Shown piece by piece: positions 40,678 through 40,887 of a stretch of 50,066 nucleotides of DNA; positions within the stretch are counted from its first letter, which is position 1, and the number at the start of each line of letters is the position of its first letter. The notes beneath the pieces are model-generated. The model ran no database searches, had not been told where the DNA came from, and was given only the letters and a program-made list of their open reading frames with translations. The stretch lies in sequence record PQ571291. One strand, given 5' to 3'. Position numbers and translations under genes: made by a program. Source of the DNA: Escherichia phage EF3-1.

Positions 40678-40887
40678 ATGATGGTATCAACTGATAAGTT
40701 TTTCACCTGCACTAAAACCTCTGAAGTATTCGAGCTTGTTCATACTGATAATGGTGATTTCATGCATGACGGTTGCGACGTTTTTATCGAAGTGAAAGAA
40801 AGCGACTATGATGACGGAGTTTATTATAACCCGGCAGTGAACACTCAGTTCTTTACACCGATCGAAGAAGAAGGAGAAGAGGCATGA
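40678..40887 (+). CDS. small acidic protein (69 aa)
   Basis: Acidic composition, C-terminus PIEEEGEEA; SD AGAGAGAAAA. Confidence 0.55.
   Translation: MMVSTDKFFTCTKTSEVFELVHTDNGDFMHDGCDVFIEVKESDYDDGVYYNPAVNTQFFTPIEEEGEEA

Follow-up and report, generated by a model that had tools for sequence, protein, structure and literature searches.

T1-like phages are standard tools of defence research, as in the BASEL and SECphi collections, and about half of their genes have no known function. One such gene lies at 40678-40887 on the plus strand of the window, that is, the whole stretch of 50,066 nucleotides analysed here (phage EF3-1, PQ571291). It encodes a small and very acidic protein, stands first behind a repeat cassette and heads a string of four overlapping genes. 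What does this protein do for the phage, and does it act on the host, on its neighbour or within the phage itself? The initial annotation, made from the letters alone, had put it forward as an independent candidate for host takeover or anti-defence.

Identity and conservation of the acidic gene

By sequence comparison, the source genome is a T1-like member of the genus Tunavirus, family Drexlerviridae. All 64 records that match positions 40000-42500 in a megablast search are Escherichia or Shigella T1-like phages, at 80-95% identity. Bases 1-141 are an exact duplicate of bases 49926-50066. Therefore, the window represents a single complete genome of about 49.9 kb, and the terminal 141 bp are an assembly or circular-permutation overlap. 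The features of the locus are the following.

40602..40619, plus strand: Drexlerviridae direct-repeat element ATAGCACnnnTTGnTAAA, the 5' part of the cassette, within repeat families D1-D6
40622..40657, plus strand: inverted repeat with a 15-bp stem and a 6-nt loop that flanks the -10-like element, from RNA folding
40637..40645, plus strand: extended -10-like element TGATATAGT (TGnTAnAnT), read from the sequence
40664..40666, plus strand: weak Shine-Dalgarno of the 69-aa gene, GAG within AAGAGAGAA; the equivalent site is annotated as RBS in T1 (AY216660)
40678..40887, plus strand: coding sequence of the 69-aa acidic, predicted all-beta protein, orthologue of T1 Orf61 (phrog_10456); ATG 40678, TGA 40885-40887
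40871..40876, plus strand: AAGGAG Shine-Dalgarno of the DUF7180 gene, inside the codons for the Orf61 tail EEEGEEA
40884..41228, plus strand: coding sequence of a 114-aa DUF7180 protein (PF23805, Pfam E 1e-31), pI 9.1; its start overlaps the Orf61 stop
41228..41458, plus strand: coding sequence of a 76-aa protein (phrog_303), third in the string, TAATG overlap
41458..41661, plus strand: coding sequence of a 67-aa protein (phrog_4927), fourth and last in the string, TAATG overlap

The open reading frame and its C-terminus, PIEEEGEEA, are as first described: 69 codons between ATG 40678 and the TGA ending at 40887 specify the protein MMVSTDKFFTCTKTSEVFELVHTDNGDFMHDGCDVFIEVKESDYDDGVYYNPAVNTQFFTPIEEEGEEA. 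The translationally coupled string of four genes (40678-41661) that the initial annotation reported also holds, with overlaps ATGA at 40884-87, TAATG at 41226-30 and TAATG at 41456-60, and a last TGA at 41659-61. On the basis of sequence, the protein belongs to the T1 Orf61/phrog_10456 family, with 98.6% identity to T1 Orf61 (AAP49940.1, CPTT1_017; YP_003884 T1p61) and 100% identity to the proteins of JMPW2 and IME18, which are annotated as hypothetical, as Orf61 is in each record inspected. The match to phrog_10456, a family with no assigned function, spans residues 1-69 of 69 (E 1.4e-50). Synteny is that of T1, since the gene follows a dNMP kinase-like gene, overlaps the Orf60/DUF7180 gene and lies upstream of the terminase genes. 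In this sense, Orf61 of T1 is the same gene in the same position with the same Orf60 overlap, and we see no meaningful difference between the two.

Orf61 has no match in Pfam (E<=0.1), NCBIfam or PADLOC. For the two proteins of the pair, these libraries returned nothing beyond DUF7180 itself and one sub-threshold match to DUF3556 (E 0.021). A full-text literature search with gene identifiers, DUF7180 and Bas13 locus tags found no functional report on Orf61 or DUF7180 and no paper that names the Orf61 gene. What is already known is Orf61 as a database hypothetical; the conserved acidic-protein/DUF7180 slot described below did not turn up in the papers searched.

The protein is indeed acidic overall, as had been noted, with 17 D/E against 3 K/R residues, a net charge of -14 and a pI of 4.05. 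In the close relative Bas13 (LeonhardEuler), Orf61 ranks second in negative charge density among 81 annotated proteins. Five of the 17 acidic residues are located in the tail, and the remaining protein is still net -9. A zinc or disulphide site formed by C11, H22, H30 and C33 was considered and rejected; these residues are not conserved in the Orf61 family, and a metal site is therefore unlikely.

Differences between the window gene and its T1 counterpart comprise 18 synonymous and one non-synonymous change (dN/dS 0.01), and dN/dS rises to 0.1-0.2 when more distant copies from the genus are compared. In 15 Tunavirus copies, 2, 9 and 38 variable sites fall at codon positions 1, 2 and 3, respectively. 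As judged from these alignments, Orf61 is a genuine gene and not a chance ORF, with an amino-acid sequence under strong purifying selection. The initial annotation had named a lack of conservation among relatives as one of two findings that would speak against its proposal. Instead, about 64 of about 66 Tunavirus-level records carry the gene, counting records at >=78% identity over those with a Tunavirus-level terminase gene, and it is thus close to universal in the genus.

Homology searches of 5.8 billion proteins, with HMMER run exhaustively on 1.8 billion representatives, recovered only 16 clusters. Their larger contigs are T1-like and of about 50 kb, with a T1-like gene order in both that were inspected, and the 15 Orf61 loci in IMG/VR are likewise T1-like. 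No homologue was found in 185,579 bacterial and archaeal species genomes, nor in complete E. coli genomes. By homology search, then, the distribution of Orf61 is restricted to phages. Two further HMMER matches, P0008 (1366 aa, 16 stretches) and P0010 (826 aa), were judged spurious, as they sum weak matches to tandem repeats.

The slot in front of DUF7180

The acidic gene and its neighbour were compared in 18 genomes from Tunavirus, Sertoctavirus, Badaguanvirus, Tlsvirus, Hanrivervirus, Warwickvirus, Henuseptimavirus and one Hafnia phage. In all 18, the gene for an acidic protein of 62-85 aa (pI 4.05-4.67, net charge from -7 to -16) runs up to or into the start of DUF7180. In 17 of them, the acidic gene comes right after a repeat cassette; the exception is BEBK14, where another small gene lies between and the 85 nt examined hold no cassette. 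The slot occupants thus resemble Orf61 in position, size, acidity, overlap with DUF7180 and upstream cassette. Divergent Orf61 homologues, from BrunoManser and the metagenomic contigs L012, L014 and L015, keep the same overlapping pair with different flanks.

The occupants fall into two groups. Group A comprises Orf61 and two detectable homologues of it, TLS gp20 and the IME347 type, with profile links of E 6e-10 to 1e-6 when the set searched was small. Group B, which comprises Bas11_0080/phrog_5684, the JLBYU 'AbrB-like' proteins, haarsle and Pocis76, has no detectable sequence similarity to group A. DUF7180 proteins that are 74-94% identical follow occupants that are unrelated or weakly similar (about 32% identity). 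For instance, the DUF7180 of L012 (group A) is 82% identical to that of Bas11 (group B), that of L014 (group A) is 74% identical to that of aalborv (group B), and those of JLBYU38 and haarsle are 94% identical. At the level of sequence, we show that the slot occupant has been exchanged between at least two unrelated groups, independently of DUF7180 subtype. Such swapping in front of near-identical DUF7180 proteins gives a mosaic of the kind commonly seen in arms-race genes. Mosaicism extends to what follows the pair: in L014 and L015, a dATP/dGTP pyrophosphohydrolase gene (PF04447, 4515-4943) follows DUF7180 in place of the phrog_303 gene.

These data bear on two points of the initial annotation. 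It had called Orf61 an independent factor, which is doubtful given that the gene is coupled to DUF7180 without exception in the sampled genomes. It had also drawn on the acidic tail. The tail is present; however, its codons contain the AAGGAG Shine-Dalgarno of DUF7180, and its acidity is therefore at least partly a by-product of coupling. The occupant tails are all Glu-rich (EEEGEEA, VEEEE, CEVVEE, AEIIE), and the gene ends are purine-rich in 18 of 18 genomes.

Some minor observations concern annotation and the downstream region. In PGN590 (L040), the slot gene is unannotated and its ORF is intact. The annotated start of bas12_0078 (BrunoManser, L003 2468-2692) runs into the cassette, and a Met located 11 codons further on is the probable true start. 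In the window, the string is followed by an intergenic gap of 164 nt (41662-41825) with no repeat cassette and no Rfam match, which holds a promoter-like TTGACC-16/18-GATAGT/TAGTAT. Further on, a strong intrinsic terminator on the plus strand at 42391-42408 (AACCCGC-TTCG-GCGGGTT, then T7) ends the small-gene cluster just ahead of the terminase genes; the other two copies of this terminator-plus-TGTAnAATG family are found at 6939 and 9118.

The upstream cassette and probable early expression

Orf61 is the first gene behind the cassette, as the initial annotation stated: the repeat ATAGCACGAATTGATAAA occupies 40602-19, 76 nt 5' of the ATG. The window holds 27 matches to this repeat, where 0.45 would be expected. 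The same repeat is known from phage TLS as a 21-nt element, aaATAGCACnnnTTGnTAAAA, about 76 nt upstream of start codons, and its role was left unresolved (PMC11447400). At the Orf61 locus, TTGATA is followed after 22 nt by the extended -10-like element, a distance that exceeds canonical -35/-10 spacing. The TGnTAnAnT form is kept in 14 of 14 aligned homologous upstream regions of the slot. The inverted repeat at 40622-40657 folds as RNA at -24.5 kcal/mol (z = -4.1), and compensatory changes are found at five stem pairs among 14 relatives. We rejected this hairpin as a canonical intrinsic terminator ('terminator' in SA30RD), as no U-tract follows it. A scan of the window against Rfam gave no match.

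A comparison with Bas11 helps to interpret the cassette. Zhang et al. reported that Bas11 gene 54 was expressed from its native upstream region even in uninfected E. coli, and that expression fell when this region carried escape mutations (PMC11578894). We infer that the fragment they cloned includes the whole cassette. The conserved TGnTAnAnT together with expression of gene 54 from its upstream region in uninfected cells supports a promoter read by host RNA polymerase, and hence early expression of Orf61. In this scheme, the direct repeat and TGnTAnAnT would form a host sigma-70 extended -10 promoter, and Orf61, as the first cistron, would be made from the start of infection. Our literature search found no T1 transcriptome.

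Elsewhere in the window, copies of ATAGCACnnnTTGnTAAA are oriented like the genes they precede (27 sites, both strands). Plus-strand sites include 34245, 34982, 36040, 37327, 38709, 39229 and 40602, and minus-strand sites include 29104, 31235, 31652, 32116 and 33294. Genome-wide, the copies carry TGnTAnAnT 22 nt after TTGnTA, often within or abutting an inverted repeat. The longest-ORF starts at 38741 and 42443 overlap or abut cassettes, and the PHROG matches of these ORFs set in at residues 14-15 and so point to true starts further downstream.

Predicted fold and candidate roles of Orf61

The AlphaFold2 model of Orf61, built on a 10-sequence alignment, reached a pLDDT of 88 and a pTM of 0.74. 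It is all-beta, with five strands (3-11, 17-23, 26-30, 36-41 and 58-61) and a disordered end of four residues. Independently built BFVD models of two homologues, from ISF001 and IME-JL8, superpose on it at TM 0.96 and 0.83, respectively. Orf61 is thus predicted with good confidence to be a small all-beta barrel. The remaining good BFVD matches are small uncharacterised proteins, including those of W011D, EK99P-1, SB28 and CS01 and a 70-aa protein of Sfin-2, which we take to be mostly T1-like phages. A weak match links the model to a 72-aa protein of Pocis76 (TM 0.62, E 2.6); the slot occupant of Pocis76 has 68 aa.

Among solved proteins, the nearest to compare is Gp54 of Bas11 (PDB 9AXB, PF25180), so far the one small Drexlerviridae barrel with a solved structure. 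Like Orf61, whose barrel is predicted, it is an all-beta small barrel of about 65 aa from a Drexlerviridae phage, and the two genes are each first behind the same repeat cassette. Unlike Orf61, Gp54 is encoded at another locus and lacks the coupling to DUF7180, and its pI of 5.2 makes it the less acidic of the two. Gp54 directly triggers the defence protein CapRelSJ46 and is dispensable to the phage. Comparison of the two sequences revealed no relationship, with 6% identity, an hhalign probability of 0.05% and no match of Orf61 to PF25180. A Foldseek search with the Orf61 model placed 9AXB tenth, at E 2.2 and TM about 0.5, which is not significant. Homology was therefore rejected on sequence, and the resemblance is at fold level only; by sequence criteria, Orf61 is not in the Gp54/PF25180 family. 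The true Gp54 homologue of the window is a 64-aa PF25180 protein encoded at 34321-34515 on the plus strand (phmmer E 2.8e-15). Its gene is the first behind the cassette at 34245 and heads a rightward gene cluster.

Another small protein of the window deserves mention here. The 70-aa product of about 32818-33030 (minus strand) is homologous to Sfin2_51, a protein wrongly labelled 'DNA methylase'; the Sfin2_51 gene overlaps a 235-aa gene located where Bas13 annotates a Dcm-like methyltransferase. The BFVD entry for a 70-aa Sfin-2 'DNA methylase', taken as Sfin2_51, resembles the Orf61 model (TM 0.69). The window protein shows weak local similarity to the N-terminus of Orf61 (35% over 31 aa), and its homologue is absent from Bas13 and Bas11. 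It is possible that this protein is a distant paralogue of Orf61.

What role would fit such a protein? Our best guess, a tentative one to which we give a probability of about 0.3, is that Orf61 is an early-made, non-enzymatic binder of a host protein. Since Orf61 carries no catalytic features, it would most likely bind another protein and act stoichiometrically. Its partner would most likely be a host protein, probably a defence or housekeeping factor that binds nucleic acid, for which the acidic surface could serve as a decoy or inhibitor. Orf61 would then be an accessory host-interaction factor, outside the virion and the replication machinery. The swap pattern, the phage-only distribution and the likeness to Gp54, an immune-sensed and dispensable barrel, favour this reading. 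Against it, the invariant coupling to DUF7180 suggests that Orf61 may not act on the host alone. Moreover, its near-core status and slow evolution within Tunavirus are unlike those of many fast-evolving anti-defence genes, part of its acidity (5 of 17 residues) lies in the tail constrained by the downstream ribosome-binding site, and the similarity to Gp54 is confined to the fold, at the scores given above. The idea of a host-takeover or anti-defence factor therefore survives in part: the gene is conserved, promoter-proximal, phage-only and placed in a swapped slot, and its product is small, acidic and non-enzymatic.

Nearly as likely is that Orf61 serves as a dedicated partner of DUF7180, the two forming a complex at a fixed ratio set by translational coupling. 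The barrel would then be a chaperone, an antagonist or a regulatory subunit, similar to an antitoxin or antirepressor, and DUF7180 would be the active component, possibly one that binds nucleic acid with its conserved W-[KR]-R-[KI]-[HNS] patch and its N-terminus of a beta-strand followed by a helix, perhaps a ribbon-helix-helix. This is consistent with the overlap or abutment of start and stop in 18 of 18 genomes, which spans two subfamilies with variable flanks. It also agrees with the acid/base complementarity of the window pair (pI 4.05 and 9.10), with the label 'AbrB family regulator-like' that some annotators give to group B occupants, and with the presence of DUF7180 in 249 phage records and in none of the bacterial genomes scanned. 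On the other hand, near-identical DUF7180 subtypes stand behind sequence-unrelated occupants with no co-evolution, and DUF7180 is itself acidic in several lineages (pI 4.4-5.7), which together argue against a tight cognate pair. DUF7180 has no match among PADLOC defence proteins and no meaningful match in the PDB, where matches to designed trefoil-knot proteins come from a short helix-cap motif, 'NLSxxQxxEL', and tell us little; the single-sequence AlphaFold model of the window DUF7180 has a pLDDT of 44 and is unusable. Antitoxins of the MazE/AbrB type II kind offer a parallel, being small, acidic, beta-rich and encoded upstream of an overlapping partner gene. Unlike them, Orf61 shows no SpoVT/AbrB signature, has no bacterial copies and occurs in a virulent-phage context, and DUF7180 is no known toxin. 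Of the traits of a type II toxin-antitoxin pair, the gene arrangement is present, whereas recognisable domains and co-evolution are not.

Two further readings look inward to the phage. Orf61 might be an accessory of packaging or the pac site, replication, nucleotide metabolism or transcription regulation, as its near-universal presence and slow evolution in Tunavirus, its place between the dNMP kinase-like and terminase genes, and the occurrence of the same cassette in front of non-accessory genes such as that of polynucleotide kinase would suggest. We consider such a housekeeping role improbable, for unrelated proteins replace the slot occupant in sister genera, which is unusual for a core component, and a protein of net charge -14 has no nucleic-acid-binding character and resembles no known packaging, replication or regulatory protein. 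Alternatively, the ORF could be mainly a translated leader that brings ribosomes to the DUF7180 start, with a peptide of little function. The location of the DUF7180 Shine-Dalgarno among the last codons of the preceding ORF, the overlap of the DUF7180 start with the upstream stop in all genomes examined, and the ability of unrelated ORFs to fill the slot are what a leader would predict. However, selection on the amino-acid sequence (18 synonymous against one non-synonymous difference; 2/9/38 across codon positions) excludes a mere leader, and both the confidently predicted folded domain and the size and acidity common to all occupants, needless in a leader, leave this reading with hardly any credit.

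Returning to the host-protein binder, a broader version of it can be put forward. Drexlerviridae would carry a family-wide slot of recombination-swapped acidic barrels, each coupled to DUF7180 and read first from the cassette promoter. This slot could be a so far unrecognised module for counter-defence or decoy, with the barrel as its arms-race specificity element; together with Gp54 of Bas11 and the 32818-33030 barrel, it could define a phage-specific fold class sensed by CapRel-type immunity. We hold this version to be a long shot. If the slot does turn out to serve counter-defence or to be sensed by immunity, host-range differences among near-identical T1-like phages would become easier to explain. 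In any case, Orf61 is now a defined and cheap experimental target, with a 210-bp gene and one candidate partner.

Small, very acidic, non-enzymatic and early-made phage inhibitors that mimic DNA are well established, such as T7 Ocr, Gp5.9, PBS2 Ugi and phi29 p56, and the antirepressor CarS illustrates that an SH3-like beta barrel can mimic DNA. Compared with Ocr, ArdA, Gp5.9, Ugi and CarS, Orf61 shares only small size and high negative charge, and we found no sequence or fold match between Orf61 and known DNA mimics or solved phage inhibitor proteins. The window codes for another small acidic protein at 29622-29834 (minus strand), the one to which the initial annotation had referred, whose Bas13 homologue tops the negative charge density of the 81 proteins (net -16, 69 aa). 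Its N-terminus appears helical from sequence, and its C-terminus reads DDDDYIPW. Bacterial SSB ends in an acidic C-terminal tail, DDDIPF; by analogy, the 29622-29834 protein is a possible SSB-tail mimic.
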